Positions 8,011-25,451 of a DNA stretch of 38,405 nt are shown here, one piece after another. The translations under genes were made by a program, and so were the position numbers. Position 1 is the stretch's first letter, and each line of letters starts with the position of its first letter. The notes under the pieces are model-generated. The model was not told where the DNA came from. It saw only the letters and a list, made by a program, of their open reading frames with translations, and ran no database searches. The DNA comes from a virus (lineage: Duplodnaviria; Heunggongvirae; Uroviricota; Caudoviricetes): IMG/VR virus record IMGVR_UViG_2639762960_000007; one strand, written 5' to 3'.

Positions 8011-8894
8011 CACACACTCCTCGTCAGTATTCTGGCGGCCATTGCACTTAATCCCGGAGACATGCGGTTGAATGCTGTGCCGGCGGCGTTAAGCTGCCCG
8101 GAAACGGTATCCAGAGCACCTGCAATATTTCTTTTGTCCACACCACTCAGCGCAGACTGTGCCTGCTGTACATACGTGACTGCTTCGCTGGCTGTTCTGG
8201 CCAGACTGATGGCATCGGGCATGGATTCAGAGAGTGCGTTAAACGCCGGAACACTTTTCCCCAGAGCCCCGGAGATATTACCCAGTCCGCTCATCAGCCC
8301 CGGCACACGGGTCAGTGCGACAACGGGGTTATCCTTCATTTTCTGTGTCACCCGAACGGCGCTGATAGTGGTCTGGAGTACAGACTGCGCCTGTTTCGCA
8401 TAGTTGACGCCGTTGCGGATGAACTGCGCCACCCCTGAAGGTGAAGGTATGGCACCGGAGACCGCCCCGACACCCGGGAGCTTCGTGCGTATTGCCGGTG
8501 GTTGCAGAGTATTTTTCGGGTCACCGGTGTATTCCCGGAGAGACACGGTGGCACTGACAGCCAGCACGTTGCCGGTACTGTCAGTCTGCTCGCTGGTTGC
8601 AGTCACATCGGTAATCACGAACCAGCCGCGATAGTCACCGTTGCCGAAGACCAGCGCCAGTGCCTGATGGGCTTTCATGGCTGTTCGCAGTCTCGCCAGC
8701 TCCACATCGGGTACACAATAATGCTGATGGAAAACCAGAGTTATCTGGATTTCGTCCAGCCTGTCGCCGACGAACTGCAGGCCAGGCTTACCCCCGATGC
8801 GGGCATGCTCCGCATAATCGACGCCGAACGTGGCCTCGAAGCCGTCCCAGTAGGTAATCAGCTCAAACTCAATATCACCCAGTACGGCAAACAT
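8010..8894 (-). CDS. Tail protein, P2 gpU-like
   Basis: 294 aa; ATG at 8892..8894; immediately downstream of the tape measure gene. Confidence 0.65.
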   Translation of the reverse strand: MFAVLGDIEFELITYWDGFEATFGVDYAEHARIGGKPGLQFVGDRLDEIQITLVFHQHYCVPDVELARLRTAMKAHQALALVFGNGDYRGWFVITDVTATSEQTDSTGNVLAVSATVSLREYTGDPKNTLQPPAIRTKLPGVGAVSGAIPSPSGVAQFIRNGVNYAKQAQSVLQTTISAVRVTQKMKDNPVVALTRVPGLMSGLGNISGALGKSVPAFNALSESMPDAISLARTASEAVTYVQQAQSALSGVDKRNIAGALDTVSGQLNAAGTAFNRMSPGLSAMAARILTRSV

Positions 8895-11845
8895 CAGCGG
8901 TACTCCTTACGTTGTTTCTGAGCCAGCAGACGCTCCAGCATTTTTTCCAGCTCATGCAGACTCATATTCAGAGCACCAGTCAGTCCTGCAGGCGCTGTGG
9001 TTTCCCTGCCATTGAGGAAAAACTGAGGATTAAAGCTGACCTGGATACCACCAGACGTTCCACCGCCGGTTGCAGCTGCACCACGGCCTGAATATCCGGC
9101 AGCCATGATTTCAGGCGAGGGGATACGGGGAACATCCGGTGTCATCTCATTTGCCAGACGTTGCCCTGGTAAAATCGATGTCCGGGTGGAGAGCGGGATA
9201 GCGGGCATGGAAGACAAACTATTGATTACGGCTCCGATCGCATTTTTAGCAGACGACATAAACCCGTTGATATCGGGCAACGGCATACTGAAGCGAACAC
9301 CTGAAGTGTTATCCCGTATTTCTGGCCCCTGAATGCTCACGGGCATTCTGGGGAGCAGTTCACTGGCCATTCGCTGCCCGGCCAGAGCTGCAAGCGGAGT
9401 GGTCCGCTGCAGGCCAATGGCGGCCCCCTGCGCGATATTGTCACCAAAGCCCATAAACACGCGGCTCGGCGAATGAATACCCAGCTTTTCACTGAACCAG
9501 CCACTGATGCTGTCACCCATTCCGGTTACACTGGATTTGAGCGACTCCCATTTGTTTTTGATACCGTTAATCAGACCGTCGACAAGATGGCCACCGAAGT
9601 CGGTGAACTTTGCCGGCAGATCAACACCAAGATATTTCAGCGCAGCTGCAAAGGCTTTATAGAGCAGACCTGCCGGCGACCAGTTAATCAGCAGCTTACC
9701 AGTTCCCGCGATACCGCCGTTAAAGGCTTCCTGAATGTCAGCCCAGCACTGTTTAAACCAGCTACTGATGCTGTCACCCATTCCGGTTACACTGGATTTG
9801 AGCGACCCCCATTTGTTTTTGATACCGTTAATCAGACCGTCGATAAGATGGCCACCGAAGTCGGTGAACTTTGCCGGCAGAGCAACGCCGAAATATTTCA
9901 GCGCAGCCGCAAAGGCTTTATAGAGCAGGCCTGCCGGCGACCAGTTAATCAGTAACTTACCAATTCCCACAATGCCGCCGTTAAAGGCTTCCTGAATGTC
10001 TGCCCAGCGCTGTTTAAACCAGCCACTGACTGCCCCCCAGTTGCGGTAGATAAGGTAAGCTGCTGCCGCGACAGCGGTGATAACGAGACCGATGGGATTC
10101 ATCATCAGCGCACGTCCAATCCAGAGAACAGCACGTCCGGCGAGCATAATTCCGCGAACCAGCCCCCCGGAGAGCACGCCACTCAGTGTTCTGGCTCCTC
10201 TGGCGACGGCGCTAAATCCGGTCACCAGCCAGCGGAGCTTACCGCCTTGCCCCAGTGCGAGCGACAGACGAAGCCAGTTGGCCCGAAGTAAAACAGCATT
10301 TTTCCAGACACTTACAAAGGGGGAAATAAGGAGATTCAGCCCCAGTTTGAGACCAACAGTCGCTATCTTAATCGCAAGGAGCGCACTGATGAGCTTAAAA
10401 GCCCCACTGACAAATTGCGGGTGAGTCGCTACCCAGTGTTTTGCCCCCTGAATGAGTGGAAGCAGTTCCTGAGTCAAAGAAATAAAAGATGGAGCTAATT
10501 GATCGCCCAGCGTAATTGCCAGATCGCGACTGCTGACCATAAGTGTTTTAGTGGCTTCAAGGGGAGATTTCAGCCGCTGATCATAAGCACTGGCAAGCAA
10601 ATCGTTATCCGCAGCCCTGAGAGCACCGGCACGGATCTCTCGATATCTGTCCATGTTGGCCAGCATCGGGCGGATAAATGCCATGACCTGCATATCCGCG
10701 AACATATCGCCCAGACCAAAGTTTTTCGCCAGAGCCTGAAGTGCCTCATCTCTTGCCGTATCATTCTTTATTTTCATGGCTGATTTGAAGCCGGCCAGCG
10801 CTTCGGGGCTTTTGGCATTGAGGTAACGTTCTATAACACTCAACATCCCTTCAATCGGAGAGATCCCCGCAGCTTTATAACTCGCAATAGATCCCTGCAA
10901 ATCAATACCCAGATCAGCAAACTGTTTCTGAGTATCGCGGGCAAAAATTTTGGTAAGAAAGTTTTTAAAATTATTGGCTGCTTCGTCGGTGGAACCTGCA
11001 CCGATTTTTGCTATCTGGAGACTGGCCCCGATTTCAGCAACAGCCTCTTTTCCACTGGCAATACCCGCCATCATTGGGGCCAGGGACTGCATCCACTTGA
11101 CCTGATCCGGGATTTCAAATGACCCCTGGTCACCGGCATAAGCCATAATATTCTGAACGGCACCAAAATCTCTGGCCGCACCTTTCAGGGAGTTTTGCCA
11201 GACTGCGGCCACTTTTGCCCAGTCCTGAGCAGACGTGCGTGTTGCCGTTGCCGCGCGGGCAATATCCGGCATCAGAAAACCGATATCTGACACATTATCA
11301 ATATTGTCGCTGATGAGTGAACCCACCGCCTCCTGCAGCTCATCCTGATACTGATTGTATTTAAGCGCCCAGCCTTTTATCTGTCCGGCAAGTGCATCCC
11401 GCGTTTTATTGTCATATTTTGCGGTGATCGACATATCAATCATTTTGTCCTGAAAAGACATGGACTGCTGAACGGCAGGGGAAACCGTATGATAAACAGT
11501 CTGTGCCATGCCATACGCTTCAATCCCCTGACCATACAGCGCCATGCGGTTAGCTTTCAGCGCATCACTGGTAGCGGATGCCGCTGACAGACGGCGCTGC
11601 TGGCGCTCAATTTGCTCCATGGTGCGGCTTACCCGCAGCAGCTCGCTGTTGAGATGCTGCATCCGGGAAGAACCCAGTTGACCATAACGTTCTGTTGCAC
11701 GGGTTAAAGCGTTCTGACGTTCCTGCAGGCGGCGTGAGGTATCGCTCAGGGAATCAAGCGCACGGCGGGTACCGCTCATTGCAGAACGGAATGTGCTGCC
11801 AATCATCCCGCCGATAACAACGCCGACTGAAAACTGTCCCGACAT
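8894..11845 (-). CDS. Tail tape measure protein
   Basis: 983 aa; ATG at 11843..11845; long helical N-terminus, hydrophobic central segments, internal tandem duplication; sits between the chaperone and U-like genes. Confidence 0.85.
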   Translation of the reverse strand: MSGQFSVGVVIGGMIGSTFRSAMSGTRRALDSLSDTSRRLQERQNALTRATERYGQLGSSRMQHLNSELLRVSRTMEQIERQQRRLSAASATSDALKANRMALYGQGIEAYGMAQTVYHTVSPAVQQSMSFQDKMIDMSITAKYDNKTRDALAGQIKGWALKYNQYQDELQEAVGSLISDNIDNVSDIGFLMPDIARAATATRTSAQDWAKVAAVWQNSLKGAARDFGAVQNIMAYAGDQGSFEIPDQVKWMQSLAPMMAGIASGKEAVAEIGASLQIAKIGAGSTDEAANNFKNFLTKIFARDTQKQFADLGIDLQGSIASYKAAGISPIEGMLSVIERYLNAKSPEALAGFKSAMKIKNDTARDEALQALAKNFGLGDMFADMQVMAFIRPMLANMDRYREIRAGALRAADNDLLASAYDQRLKSPLEATKTLMVSSRDLAITLGDQLAPSFISLTQELLPLIQGAKHWVATHPQFVSGAFKLISALLAIKIATVGLKLGLNLLISPFVSVWKNAVLLRANWLRLSLALGQGGKLRWLVTGFSAVARGARTLSGVLSGGLVRGIMLAGRAVLWIGRALMMNPIGLVITAVAAAAYLIYRNWGAVSGWFKQRWADIQEAFNGGIVGIGKLLINWSPAGLLYKAFAAALKYFGVALPAKFTDFGGHLIDGLINGIKNKWGSLKSSVTGMGDSISSWFKQCWADIQEAFNGGIAGTGKLLINWSPAGLLYKAFAAALKYLGVDLPAKFTDFGGHLVDGLINGIKNKWESLKSSVTGMGDSISGWFSEKLGIHSPSRVFMGFGDNIAQGAAIGLQRTTPLAALAGQRMASELLPRMPVSIQGPEIRDNTSGVRFSMPLPDINGFMSSAKNAIGAVINSLSSMPAIPLSTRTSILPGQRLANEMTPDVPRIPSPEIMAAGYSGRGAAATGGGTSGGIQVSFNPQFFLNGRETTAPAGLTGALNMSLHELEKMLERLLAQKQRKEYR
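9495..10016 (-). repeat. Two tandem ~261-bp direct repeats inside the tape measure gene, plus the start of a third
   Basis: actgatgctgtcacccattccggttacactggatttgagcga at 9503 recurs at 9764; the encoded 87-aa units (WFKQRWADIQEAFNGG...GMGDSIS) are nearly identical. Confidence 0.85.
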
Positions 11846-11920
11846 AGTGGTTAACCTCCGGGGAAGGTGAAAAGACGTGAGGGGATAACGCAGAACAGCC
11901 GCTACTGGCGGCTGTCTGTA

Positions 11921-12178
11921 CTATGATTTGTCGCCGTACTCGCTTTTTATTTGCTCTTCAGCCTGCTCCAGCCACATCTCCAGATCGTCAGTATCGAGGG
12001 CATCAATCTCCCCCGGCTGAAACCGGAACCATCTCGCCAGCAGCCCCTGCGCCTGCGTCAGCGCCCTGGTTGCTCTCACCCATCCCCGTGATGAGCTGAA
12101 ATCGTTTCTGTAACTGCAGGTAATCAGCCAGATCCATATTGTCGAGATCTTCCGGGAGAAGACCAGTACTGCGGGCAA
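11921..12178 (-). CDS. Out-of-frame extension ORF overlapping the 3' end of the tail chaperone gene (E'-like; putative frameshift product)
   Basis: ORF in the +1/-2 frame relative to the E-like gene, overlapping 12003..12178 and running to 11921. This is the standard position for a programmed frameshift in tail assembly chaperones. The slip site was not identified. Confidence 0.4.
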   Translation of the reverse strand: MPAVLVFSRKISTIWIWLITCSYRNDFSSSRGWVRATRALTQAQGLLARWFRFQPGEIDALDTDDLEMWLEQAEEQIKSEYGDKS

Positions 12179-12338
12179 TCAGCGGTTCGTCCCAGTCTGC
12201 CGGGTTTTTGCTGATTTTGCGCACCTGCTTCAGGTCTTTTACCGTCAGGCGTTTCAGTTCAACCAGCTCAATTCTGGTACCTGCAGCAGTGGTGAAGGGA
12301 TAAGACAATTTAAAAGTATCGGATGGGGTCTGTGACAT
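12003..12338 (-). CDS. Tail assembly chaperone, P2 gpE-like
   Basis: 111 aa; ATG at 12336..12338; lies just upstream of the tape measure gene with an overlapping second-frame ORF. Confidence 0.6.
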   Translation of the reverse strand: MSQTPSDTFKLSYPFTTAAGTRIELVELKRLTVKDLKQVRKISKNPADWDEPLIARSTGLLPEDLDNMDLADYLQLQKRFQLITGMGESNQGADAGAGAAGEMVPVSAGGD

Positions 12339-12435
12339 GATTGTGCTCCTGTGTAAGTTCAGGGCAGTATGTCGGGAGAAGCGCGTGACGGATATTAAAG
12401 GAGATTAAGAAGAAGGGGCCGGAGCCCCTGTGATG

Positions 12436-12717
12436 TCAGCAAGTGCGAAACCCCTTGCAGTTACGCAGGAAAGCGATGAGAAGCGTCTTTCCCTCAGATT
12501 TGCCGATGCCGGAGAACCAGTGGTCGGGAGGCTCCCATGCTTCAATCAAATCCGCCAGTTTGCGGGCCTTTGAACGTGTGCAGTCAATCGGGTCATTGGT
12601 TTTACGGGTATTAAAAAGGGTTTCCACCCCCGGAATATCAAGGAGGGTAAACCACGTACCATTTGACATGCCCAGTGCCGCACATCGTCCTCCTTTATCC
12701 GTCAGTTCAACACTCAC
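12436..12717 (-). CDS. Hypothetical small protein between tube and chaperone genes (doubtful)
   Basis: 93-aa ORF whose first codon is GTG; no recognisable motif; a similar-size ORF exists on the opposite strand, so coding status is uncertain. Confidence 0.25.
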   Translation of the reverse strand: MSVELTDKGGRCAALGMSNGTWFTLLDIPGVETLFNTRKTNDPIDCTRSKARKLADLIEAWEPPDHWFSGIGKSEGKTLLIAFLRNCKGFRTC

Positions 12718-12719
12718 CG

Positions 12720-13241
12720 TCAGCCCCCGATATTGATACGGTAGTCAGTCAGTTGATCAACACCGCCGACCCGGAAGATGTTGGCCAGATAGTCCAGTTG
12801 CAGCAGCTCTTCACCATCCAGTACCTGTCTGATATACGTGCAGGTGAAGCTACTGGAGAACTCGGCGTTCTCGTGCTGTTTGAACGTCCCCAGCGGGTTC
12901 TTCTTGAACATAATCGTCAGGAAGGTGACCAGCGGGATTTCGTCAATCAGCCCCTGCGAGCTGTAGCGCTGGACGCTGGAACGACACTGCAGTGCCAGCG
13001 ACCTGTACGGGTTCGCGGCAGACAGCATCGCATCGCGGTAAAAGCTGTTCCATTTGATTTCGCCTTCCAGTTTGTCAAAACCAGCCGGGAGTTCCACCTT
13101 ACCCACCATCCCCAGCGCCTTGTGTTCCTGCATAATCATGGAGACATCGGGGAGTTTAACTTCCTCAGCCCGTCCCAGCAGGTTAGTACCATCCAGATAG
13201 ATGTTGGCATTCGTGATGCGGTTTATCTCAATCTTTGACAT
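12720..13241 (-). CDS. Tail tube protein (P2 FII-like)
   Basis: 173 aa; ATG at 13239..13241 in ATGA overlap with the sheath stop; sheath-tube order. Confidence 0.8.
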   Translation of the reverse strand: MSKIEINRITNANIYLDGTNLLGRAEEVKLPDVSMIMQEHKALGMVGKVELPAGFDKLEGEIKWNSFYRDAMLSAANPYRSLALQCRSSVQRYSSQGLIDEIPLVTFLTIMFKKNPLGTFKQHENAEFSSSFTCTYIRQVLDGEELLQLDYLANIFRVGGVDQLTDYRINIGG

Positions 13242-14668
13242 CAGTTGCCCCCTTTCAGGGTTAACAGGTATTCCGAGGTGATCTCAGTCTCAAACGTCAG
13301 TCGCTCCAGCGGCGGTGGTGGCGTATATTTGTAGCTCAGCAACAGGTGCCCGGCGGCCAGCTCCGTCTCCGGATTGCGGGCCGGATCAAACCAGCAACGG
13401 AAGCCCAGTACCGCACCATCACCAGTCATTTTGCGACCGTAGGCGTTGACCGACTCCGTCAGTGCATCAATCAGCGCCTGAGTAATCGGCATGTCGATGT
13501 ACTGCTGGCTGAAATAACGAATGGACTCGTTGATCACATCACCGGTGCGGCGAACGTTCTCAAAGTTACGCATATGGGTGACCGTTGGCCATGCTGCCGT
13601 CCGGTTACCCCACAGACGAAGGCCGCTGCCGTAACTGCTGAATACCGTGGTGATCCCCTGTTCGTTAAGCAGGTTCACCTCACTCTGCGGGTCATCAATC
13701 ATCGCGGACAGCTGGCGCTCCACGCCGGTGATCCCCAGAATCTCCTGATTGGAGGATGACCACCAGTAGCCCTTGTCCAGATCGACTCTGGCACGCAGAC
13801 CTGCTGCACGCTGGCTGAGCGGCTCCAGACGCTCTGTGTTTGTCACCGGGTCATATACCTTCACATGCGGATAGCACAGACGGACGCGGTCGGAGCTGGT
13901 ATTGAAGTTGATGGTGCCTTCCGGGCCACGACCTGCCAGAGCCTGTGCAAAGGTGGTACCGACAGGCGCATCAATGTAGGTTACCGCGCCCAGCTTCTCT
14001 GCCATGGCGATAAGCTCAACTGCGACACTCTTCTGGGTGCAGAACACCGGCGCAATCAGAATTTTGGCGAAATAGCCGTACAGGTTGAAGCTGTCGTTAA
14101 GCAGCTTCATGCCGGTTCGGTTTCCGGCGCTGTTCACCCCGCCGATGATGTCCGCCGCAGTCACCTTCGACGGGTCCGCGTACTCATAGCTCACCTTCAC
14201 GCTGCCACCGGCCTCAATAGCCTTGCCCAGGTTCGTGAGCACACCCGCCTGCGCATCAACACGGTAGTCCGTGTTCGCCGTGTGGGTGGTGCTGCCTTCA
14301 CTGTTTTTCACCACCACATTAGCGACAACCGGATGCGCCAGTCTGGCCTGCCCTGTCGATTTGTCAAAGGTAACCACCTCATCCTCGATCGCCGTTTTAT
14401 GTTTCGCCGGGTCGAGGACGTTAATGACCAGAACGGTGCCTGCACCATGGTCATAAATCGCATCCAGCGCCTGCGGAATGGTAAAGCCGGTGAACTGGCT
14501 GCCAAATGCCGCTGCGTCTTTCTCAGACAGGCACTGTACCAGCGTATTGACATCCCCCATCGGGGCGGTACCAATCAGGCCAATAACGGCAGATTTCACC
14601 GTTTTAACCGGGCGGGCACCGTTTTCCACCTCAATGGTTTCGGGACCATGCAGATAGTTAGCTGCCAT
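13241..14668 (-). CDS. Contractile tail sheath protein (P2 FI-like)
   Basis: 475 aa; ATG at 14666..14668 preceded by GGAGG; size and position typical of myovirus sheath. Confidence 0.9.
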   Translation of the reverse strand: MAANYLHGPETIEVENGARPVKTVKSAVIGLIGTAPMGDVNTLVQCLSEKDAAAFGSQFTGFTIPQALDAIYDHGAGTVLVINVLDPAKHKTAIEDEVVTFDKSTGQARLAHPVVANVVVKNSEGSTTHTANTDYRVDAQAGVLTNLGKAIEAGGSVKVSYEYADPSKVTAADIIGGVNSAGNRTGMKLLNDSFNLYGYFAKILIAPVFCTQKSVAVELIAMAEKLGAVTYIDAPVGTTFAQALAGRGPEGTINFNTSSDRVRLCYPHVKVYDPVTNTERLEPLSQRAAGLRARVDLDKGYWWSSSNQEILGITGVERQLSAMIDDPQSEVNLLNEQGITTVFSSYGSGLRLWGNRTAAWPTVTHMRNFENVRRTGDVINESIRYFSQQYIDMPITQALIDALTESVNAYGRKMTGDGAVLGFRCWFDPARNPETELAAGHLLLSYKYTPPPPLERLTFETEITSEYLLTLKGGN

Positions 14669-24374: not shown

Positions 24375-25098
24375 AACTGCTGCCTCCCCATGTGAGATAT
24401 CGCGGTGCCAGTTCGCGCAGGATGCGCTGCGGATAATGGCGGTTCTCCCGCCAGCTGGCCGCATTGCGTCCGGCATTCACCGTGGCGACATGTCCGAACC
24501 AGCGGGTGCTGTCCAGCCCCTGCTGCGAGGCCAGCCGTTTGTCCCGCTGTACCCAGCCCAGACCACCGTTATAGCCTGACAGCGTCATGGCCATACGCTC
24601 GCAGTCACTGGCGGCGCTGACGCGTTGCCACAGCCAGCGGTCATAGCTGACCAGCGCCCGGATGGCCCACGCCGGATTAAACGGTTCACGGCTGTTAAGC
24701 CCCGGCATCAGCTGACTTATCCAGTCAGCGGTGGTGGGCATAAACTGCGCCAGTCCCTGAGCGCCAGCCGGCGAGACCGCATCAGGTCGCCAGCCGCTTT
24801 CCTGATGCAGCTGCGCGGCGAAGTCGGCCACCGGCGCAGACAGTCCCCATTCAAGCCGGGCATTACGGATCACATCATCGCGATACTGCAGCGCAACCTG
24901 CGGAGGCTGCGCTGCGCATGCCTGGCTGAAAAAGCCGCCACACCAGAGCAACATTGCGACAAAGAATACCCATGCCATATGAACCAGAAAGGTCCCGGCG
25001 CGGACTGACAGGCGTTCGGTTCTGATGAAGACCCGAAAGGCTTCGAAAGCCAGTTTCAGGGACATGCATACAATCCAGGTGATCTGCGGCCAGTTCAT
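24358..25098 (-). CDS. Endolysin, soluble lytic transglycosylase (SLT) type, with N-terminal hydrophobic segment (possible signal-anchor-release domain)
   Basis: 246 aa; ATG at 25096..25098; SLT motif region LHQESGWRPDAVSPAGAQGLAQFMP; N-terminal hydrophobic stretch MAWVFFVAMLLWCGGFF. Confidence 0.75.
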   Translation of the reverse strand: MNWPQITWIVCMSLKLAFEAFRVFIRTERLSVRAGTFLVHMAWVFFVAMLLWCGGFFSQACAAQPPQVALQYRDDVIRNARLEWGLSAPVADFAAQLHQESGWRPDAVSPAGAQGLAQFMPTTADWISQLMPGLNSREPFNPAWAIRALVSYDRWLWQRVSAASDCERMAMTLSGYNGGLGWVQRDKRLASQQGLDSTRWFGHVATVNAGRNAASWRENRHYPQRILRELAPRYLTWGGSSCVASG

Positions 25099-25100
25099 GA

Positions 25101-25451
25101 TTAAAGCCCCATCGCAACAGCCAGACAGACAGCTGCAACAATCAGTGCACGGCGGATTAACGCAGCAGAAAATACAAGGTGAAGGCCGGTCTGCACAGGG
25201 AAACGCCCTTCAGCCATCAGCCTGTCTTCATGTTTCAGGTACTGACCGGGACGGGCTTTGGGGAAGAGCGAACGGTCAAGCCAGTACCCCAGCACTGCTG
25301 CCAGCGTGATGAGTGCCAGCTTGTAGATCACAACAGGCAACTGCTGTGGCGAGACCAGAGCGATGATGCCCAGCAACAGCACTGAGGTCAGCAGCCAGCC
25401 GCTGAGGCGAGGTTTTTTAACAGGGGGAATGAATTTTTTCAGGTTTTTCAT
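25101..25451 (-). CDS. Holin (three predicted TM segments)
   Basis: ATG at 25449..25451 preceded by GAGGAG gives 116 aa. The track ORF opens 11 codons upstream (GTG at 25482..25484, then ATG at 25479..25481). First gene of the lysis cassette. Confidence 0.6.
   Translation of the reverse strand: MKNLKKFIPPVKKPRLSGWLLTSVLLLGIIALVSPQQLPVVIYKLALITLAAVLGYWLDRSLFPKARPGQYLKHEDRLMAEGRFPVQTGLHLVFSAALIRRALIVAAVCLAVAMGL

Follow-up and report, generated by a model that had tools for sequence, protein, structure and literature searches.

Translational frameshifting in tail assembly chaperone genes is known, and shifts of -1, -2 or +1 are given in reviews, those of +1 and -2 being the rare cases (PMC3498833, PMC5009743). 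In phage lambda the proteins gpG and gpGT share their N-terminus, are produced in a fixed low ratio and are both absent from virions (PMC5009743). In two papers the ratio of G to GT is quoted at about 30:1 and the efficiency of the -2 shift of phage Mu at about 2.2% (PMC3498833, PMC5009743). Phage P2 makes gpE+E' besides gpE by a -1 shift on the heptamer T_TTT_TTG, which lies six codons before the stop of E. Another kind of site is found in influenza A virus, where P-site slippage on UUU_C was demonstrated for PA-X at UCC_UUU_CGU; its authors proposed a general class of such sites in which the A- and E-site codons are restricted (PMC3498833). Well-defined +1 sites in bacteria are few and nearly all of them need a stop codon.

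The DNA analysed here (the window, i.e. the whole stretch of 38,405 nucleotides) is a transposable prophage that resembles BcepMu, and of 5426 complete Escherichia coli genomes 637 (about 12%) contain the same 551 bases. Its tail region is 99.7% identical to that of Escherichia phage PhiKM, a phage assigned to Bcepmuvirus, and is collinear with that of Burkholderia phage BcepMu. According to the list of open reading frames (ORFs) and to Pfam, the minus strand encodes a contractile-tail module in the order sheath, tube, a 93-aa ORF, E, E' and tape measure (Table 1). E and E' are thus placed downstream of the tube gene and directly upstream of the tape measure gene, as in the lambda G/GT paradigm, and in the enteric relatives just 75 nt separate E' from the latter. 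The tape measure protein is presumed to be the client of the E chaperone. E matches Pfam PF10109 (Phage_TAC_7), the family of P2 E and BcepMu gp41, over residues 8-81 with E = 5.5e-21 and 74.8 bits (cutoff 25). This match and the position of the gene between the sheath and tube genes and the tape measure gene bear out the suggestion of an earlier note on this DNA that a tail assembly chaperone pair is encoded here. That the locus is the chaperone pair of a BcepMu-like myovirus prophage and that its long form would arise by a +1 slip at TTT_C is, taken together, a reading in which we have considerable confidence.

Table 1. Features of the tail module and of the E/E' overlap (positions in the window)
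Feature	Position	Strand	Remarks
Tail sheath gene	14668..13241	-	ORF list; PF04984/PF17482
Tail tube gene	13241..12720	-	ORF list; PF04985
Small 93-aa ORF	12717..12436	-	ORF list; between tube gene and E
E-like tail assembly chaperone	12338..12003	-	111 aa; ATG; GGAG 8 nt upstream; Pfam PF10109
Second (E'-like) ORF	12178..11921	-	85 aa; nominal TTG start
Upstream part of the nominal +1 ORF	12178..12098	-	open by chance; non-coding in the +1 frame
Proposed +1 frameshift site CGA_TTT_C	12104..12098	-	E codons 79-80 and first base of codon 81
E' coding part	12097..11921	-	+1 frame after the proposed slip; SSSRGWVRATRALTQAQGLLARWFRFQPGEIDALDTDDLEMWLEQAEEQIKSEYGDKS, then stop TAG (11923..11921)
G-rich run CCGGGGGAG	12016..12008	-	encodes Pro-Gly-Glu of E' in the +1 frame
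Tape measure protein gene	11845..8894	-	ORF list; PF10145 PhageMin_Tail

Near its end E is read as TCA GCC GGG GGA GAT TGA, whereas the second frame at the same place is CAG CCG GGG GAG ATT GAT. The codons of the second ORF therefore lie one nucleotide downstream of those of E, which is a displacement of +1 or, equivalently, of -2. This can be read directly from the codons and agrees with the earlier note, in which a +1/-2 rather than a -1 relation had been deduced for an E'-like ORF that overlaps the 3' part of E; both ORFs are listed exactly as described there. A canonical slippery heptamer had not been recognized, and indeed no X_XXY_YYZ sequence in the phase of E is present within the E/E' overlap. 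The -1 frame closes within 5-15 codons of the Phe codon of the proposed site, on its downstream side within 8, and has no protein-like conservation, and on these grounds it was rejected as a route to E'. The product of the +1 frame, by contrast, is kept in more than 100 distinct loci, in which variation gathers at the third positions of that frame. This indicates that the overlap is not due to chance.

The second ORF might in principle be an open frame without a product. Its 5' part is indeed non-coding in that frame, the variation between 12178 and 12098 being at the third positions of E, but the protein that its 3' part encodes is shared by loci ranging from E. coli to Burkholderia and Pseudomonas, and the variation in this part is of a synonymous kind. 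In an alignment of the +1 tails of 13 lineages an invariant Trp is found 3-6 codons after the Phe codon, followed by the motif QP.E..L and by a conserved helix-like stretch. E' matches phrog_8286 with E = 2.7e-34 and resembles Pfam PF06528 (Phage_P2_GpE) over 33 of the 37 profile positions with E = 0.0015 and a score of 18.4 bits, which is below the cutoff of 23; 10 of the 13 members of the E' family match this profile at E <= 0.1. Judged by these comparative data, a chance origin is effectively refuted and has practically no probability left. When E' was aligned with the tail of P2 E' by hhalign, a probability of 86.6% was obtained (E = 4.5e-6), and in some genomes PGAP labels the +1 ORF as 'GpE family phage tail protein'. 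On the strength of these profile comparisons E' is considered to be remotely homologous to P2 E'. The E+E' fusion has no sequence match among solved structures, and no meaningful match was obtained in NCBIfam.

The position of the shift was bounded by comparison with relatives drawn from IMG/VR viral contigs, GTDB species genomes and phage records (tblastn), with P2 and Mu as references. A scan of viral contigs with the E' alignment gave close relatives only; the distant ones came from tblastn of phage records. The comparison set comprised 103 distinct loci from Enterobacterales, Rivihabitans, Burkholderia, Ralstonia and Pseudomonas, and 54 different enteric sequences, with an effective number of about 22, were used for the column entropies. 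On the upstream side, the +1 frame is closed four codons before the Phe codon in Ralstonia phage YO107_2 (L217) and five codons before it in L099. On the downstream side, the E frame stops eight codons after Phe in Rivihabitans (L132) and at codon 91 in a 90-aa variant that is present on 914 contigs. Within these bounds TTT_C offers the only cognate P-site re-pairing, and the site is therefore placed at the end of the domain-encoding part of E (Table 1), 31 codons before the E stop.

The pattern of variation changes at the same place. Up to codon 78 the variable position in the 54 enteric sequences is the third base of the E frame. Codons 79-80 (CGA TTT) are invariant at each of their six positions. 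A mixed stretch that codes in both frames extends over codons 82-94, and from codon 83 onwards the variable base is the first position of the E frame, which is the third position of the +1 frame. At codon 86, for instance, the entropies are 1.53/0/0: E has ATG, CTG, TTG or GTG, and the fixed bases are those of GGN-TGG (Gly-Trp) in the +1 frame. Likewise, in 13 Burkholderia-type sequences the +1 codon that follows TTT is GCA, GCC, GCT, GCG or GTC, whereas the E-frame residue at this position is C, D, G, L, R or S. The periodicity of selection switches from the E to the +1 frame at the Phe codon (F80 of the window protein).

Beyond residue 80 the C-terminal tail of E is Gly/Ala-rich and variable in length, E being about 88-111 aa long in the relatives. 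The 90-aa variant mentioned above (protein P0014, in L021/L022) results from a CAG-to-TAG change in E codon 91 (12068..12066). Its TTT_C site and +1 ORF are intact, so that E can probably do without the Gly/Ala-rich tail.

TTT followed by C at the invariant Phe, in the +1 arrangement, was found in 102 of the 103 distinct loci. The properties proposed for the PA-X class, namely a zero-frame UUU followed by C that is conserved at the nucleotide level and located at the 5' end of a +1 ORF, are present in these 102. The exception (L123) has the same nucleotides together with a single-base deletion 15 nt upstream. The most frequent form is CGA TTT CAG (75 loci); TCC TTT CGC occurs in seven, GCC TTT CGC in five, CGA TTT CGC in four, CAC TTT CGC or CGT in three and CGA TTT CTG in two. 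Single cases are those with CAA, CAT, TCT..CGT, CGG TTT CAG, GTG TTT CGG and GCA TTT CAA, and Burkholderia phage vB_HM795 has TCC TTT CGA. In the A site, for which the PA-X class prefers CGN, 76 loci have CAG and 22 have CGN (21 plus vB_HM795), the rest having CTG, CAA or CAT. In the E site 83 loci have CGA, and the others have TCC, GCC, CAC, TCT, GTG, GCA or CGG.

This conservation is found at the level of the nucleotides. The residue that follows Phe in the E frame is variable (Q, R, L or H), but the first base of its codon, C, is invariant. In the enteric set CGA and TTT are each present in 54 of 54 sequences, whereas synonymous changes are seen at every other conserved codon for Phe or Arg in E and E'. 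TTT is retained in the Burkholderia-type loci even though TTC outnumbers TTT by 553 to 125 in their long ORFs. The fixation of TTT_C could in part reflect dual-coding constraint rather than a recoding signal.

UUU and UUC are both read by one tRNA-Phe. UUU-pyrimidine sites are reportedly prone to +1 shifting in E. coli, as Schwartz and Curran are said to have found in 1997. Most ribosomes would translate E through to its stop, and a minority would shift at codon 80. The peptidyl-tRNA-Phe (anticodon GAA), located on UUU in the P site (12101..12099), would re-pair one base on with UUC (12100..12098), with which it pairs better, and translation would resume in the +1 frame with AGC. The predicted product consists of E residues 1-80 followed by SSSRGWVRATRALTQAQGLLARWFRFQPGEIDALDTDDLEMWLEQAEEQIKSEYGDKS and has 138 aa; its E' part would run from SSSRGW to GDKS. 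CGA, the usual E-site codon, is decoded inefficiently via an I:A wobble, and this weak pairing may help the slip. A -2 shift at the Phe codon would put tRNA-Phe on GAU or CCU. A true +1 shift is favoured over -2 because only +1 lets the P-site tRNA re-pair cognately. From the arrangement of the frames and the fixation of the site we infer that a +1 slip of P-site tRNA-Phe on TTT_C most likely makes E+E'.

How often this would happen can be estimated only roughly. The A site contains neither a stop codon nor an evidently rare codon, being CAG in the window, and no Shine-Dalgarno-like (SD-like) element was seen upstream of the site. The minimum free energy folds 3' of it differ among the lineages (z-scores -2.4 to +1.4), giving no sign of a stimulatory RNA structure, and no Rfam family matches between 11700 and 12500. 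As none of these aids was seen, the efficiency is probably a few per cent, as the ratios of tail chaperones require. It could also be very low, CAG being no rare codon and no stimulator having been seen. A low unassisted efficiency would suit a chaperone pair, given the values for Mu and lambda quoted above. By analogy with lambda G/GT and P2 E/E+E', E and E+E' would use their common N-terminal domain to bind the tape measure protein, and recruitment of the tube protein would fall to the E' extension.

The earlier note had implied that the shift takes place near a G-rich run close to the end of E. The run is present where it had been reported (Table 1), and the E frame of the window does reach it, stopping two codons later. 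A slip at this place (GCC GGG GGA GAT TGA), either +1 on GGG_G or -2 as in Mu, would give a product that reads ...EMVPVSAG(G)EIDALD..., with the junction ...MVPVSAGEIDALD (+1) or ...MVPVSAGGEIDALD (-2). According to two papers, Mu gets to its own +1 frame by a -2 slip on the similar run CGG GGG CGA (PMC3498833, PMC5009743), and several database ORFs carry exactly the G-run junction through a change of G5 to G4. Nevertheless, in about half of the enteric relatives the E frame does not get that far but is terminated at GTT TAG, seven codons earlier. The sequence of the run also varies, being CCT or CCA GGG GAG or CCG AGT GAG, and in BcepMu CCG TCC GAG, changes all of which leave the +1-frame residue unaltered or replace it conservatively; Brenneria-type and Burkholderia relatives lack the run. 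A conserved G5 run in the zero-frame ORF, as would mark a shift point of the Mu type, is therefore not found, and on account of the upstream stop and the variability of the run it was rejected as a conserved shift site. Moreover, the +1 frame is under purifying selection from about 25 codons upstream of the run, and the peptide QAQGLLARWFRFQP, which it encodes there, is nearly invariant. Such selection would be pointless if this part were not translated, which argues against a shift at the G run; we consider it very improbable as the route to E'. In the window's own lineage, where the E frame reaches the run, a minor second slip at G5 may occur in addition to that at TTT_C.

In some database entries E and E' are fused into one 138-aa ORF by single-base indels. 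They comprise L107 (Erwinia tracheiphila) and L123 (Apirhabdus apintestini), both of which are single-base deletions, and proteins P0001-P0009. The indels are G5 to G4 at the G run, A5 to A4, G3 to G2 or the deletion 15 nt upstream of TTT. The fact that the junctions are at several different homopolymers gives them the appearance of indel errors or mutants and speaks against the G run as the natural junction. The single-ORF fusions were not accepted as displaying a natural junction, as they differ in the homopolymer concerned (G5, A5 or G3) or have multiple indels; most likely they are sequencing errors or mutants that would make only the long form.

A change of frame at the RNA level, by slippage of RNA polymerase, is extremely improbable. 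No points in its favour were found, and G5 is the only homopolymer of more than four bases near the E stop. Productive transcriptional slippage is established to need long runs of A or T (reviewed in PMC5009743), but the conserved site has only three T, and slippage at G5 is contradicted by the lack of conservation of that run.

Alternatively, E' could be a separate small protein made from an internal start, so that no frameshift would be involved. BcepMu gp42 is annotated as a separate gene with its own ATG, and an in-frame Met is kept in the Burkholderia group; in some E. coli genomes PGAP annotates a CDS of 46 aa; and in the window a GTG (12079..12077) is preceded by GGGGA. The SD-like spacing of this GTG, however, is only 3 nt, and most enteric relatives have GCA in its place. 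The nominal TTG at 12178 comes directly after a stop and has no ribosome binding site (RBS). In the enteric relatives no conserved +1-frame start was found and no conserved combination of start codon and RBS that would belong to the second ORF, which the earlier note had regarded as the sign of separate translation; independent initiation of E' was rejected for this reason. The selection on the +1 frame and the invariant Trp start upstream of every candidate start, including the annotated start of BcepMu gp42, and the fixation of the nucleotides of TTT_C in all lineages would be left unexplained by an independent start. In addition, the P2 homologue of E' is demonstrably made as a fusion (record annotation). 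Separate initiation is thus unlikely, and the +1 slip at TTT_C is retained as the preferred reading. In the BcepMu record (NC_005882; L003, record 24858..25363) the frames joined by the proposed slippage are gp42 and gp43 instead of gp41 and gp42. This annotation is probably wrong, since the enteric relatives have nothing that corresponds to the gp43 frame; the 75 nt between E' and the tape measure gene leave no room for it there.

Some further observations were made in the neighbourhood of the locus. The 93-aa ORF between the tube gene and E matches DUF7739 with E = 3.5e-5, which is below the cutoff, and phrog_1239, of unknown function, with E = 4.7e-48. It is followed on the same strand by a terminator-like hairpin (12429..12414), AGGGGCTCCGGCCCCT, with a T-rich tail. 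In BcepMu there are just about 120 nt in place of this ORF, which thus has the look of a moron-like gene that was inserted. Between the E' stop and the start of the tape measure gene a stem-loop is present on the minus strand (11915..11895), which consists of ACAGCCGC-CAGTA-GCGGCTGT and is followed by TCTGCGTT. A hairpin in this gap is kept in the relatives, in some with another stem, e.g. GCAGCC-GGTAA-CGGCTGC and then TTTCTTCC. It could be a weak terminator, an attenuator or an element of RNA stability. Within the tape measure gene 261 bp are duplicated in tandem (9495..10029; 2.0 copies, 93% identical), so that an 87-aa segment is repeated; in the record of the nearly identical phage PhiKM the gene is interrupted by a sequencing gap. 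Variants with different copy numbers may have tails of different lengths. Finally, an 8-kb contig labelled Arthrobacter sp. GMC3 (NZ_PJIO01000028.1; L097) carries the chaperone of this enterobacterial prophage with 99% protein identity, most likely because of contamination of the Arthrobacter assembly.

No earlier description of a TTT_C site in a chaperone gene was found in the searchable literature, outside which most subscription journals lie. In the annotated records examined, those of E. coli genomes included, E and E' are never joined, E' being either omitted or made a separate gene. Prediction tools that look for a heptamer near the stop codon will miss a site that is located 31 codons upstream of it. 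If the reading is correct, UUU_C on sense codons, which is kept in loci ranging from E. coli to Burkholderia and Pseudomonas, would be a simple and testable class of bacterial +1 signals.

Among the known systems, P2 gpE/gpE+E' has the same order of sheath, tube, E, E' and tape measure genes as the window; its E also belongs to PF10109, its E' appears to be remotely homologous, and its shift is likewise at a Phe codon on the C-terminal edge of the PF10109 domain. The two differ in the signal, P2 using a -1 heptamer and the window, by the present proposal, +1 slippage on a tetranucleotide. They differ also in its distance from the E stop (6 against 31 codons), so that the overlap in the window is long and dual-coding. 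In Pasteurella phage AFS-2018a E' is in the -1 frame and the canonical sequence A_AAG_GGA is present. P2 and the Pasteurella phage thus have canonical -1 sites at the same domain boundary, which implies that the fusion of E to E' is the conserved outcome. That P2, the Pasteurella phage and the BcepMu-like homologues would obtain the same fusion by opposite slips bears on the evolutionary exchange of recoding signals.

Mu gp41 resembles the window in that it comes from a Mu-like transposable myovirus and that its second frame is +1, and it is the known precedent for a chaperone shift other than -1. It belongs, however, to a different family (Gp41_Mu, PF23746) and slips -2 on a G5 run (CGG_GGG_CGA), whereas the G5 run of the window lacks conservation and TTT does not permit re-pairing after a -2 shift. 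With lambda gpG/gpGT the window has in common a chaperone pair encoded just upstream of the tape measure gene; lambda is a siphovirus and shifts -1 on G_GGA_AAG.

In the nature of the site the closest likeness is to influenza A PA-X, which has the UUU_C tetranucleotide, the +1 direction and the proposed re-pairing of P-site tRNA-Phe, and for the window, too, a low efficiency would be expected. TCC TTT CGC of the BcepMu group, which BcepMu itself has too, is identical to the influenza sequence UCC_UUU_CGU at eight of nine bases, the last being C instead of U. PA-X-type sites act on eukaryotic ribosomes and have CGN in the A site, whereas the window has CAG in the A site and CGA in the E site; the resemblance is convergent and not due to descent. 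In bacteria, +1 P-site slips like the one proposed here are known at CUU_UGA of prfB and in structural genes of a Listeria phage and SPP1. On balance we lean, with some reserve, towards the wider view that a +1 slip on UUU_C, unassisted by a stop codon, hungry codon, Shine-Dalgarno element or RNA structure, makes the long chaperone throughout a clade of BcepMu-like phages and prophages of Beta- and Gammaproteobacteria, with CGA in the E site as a modest enhancer. Such a site would be the bacterial counterpart of the influenza PA-X/amalgavirus motif and would have replaced the -1 heptamers that homologous P2-like chaperones still use.
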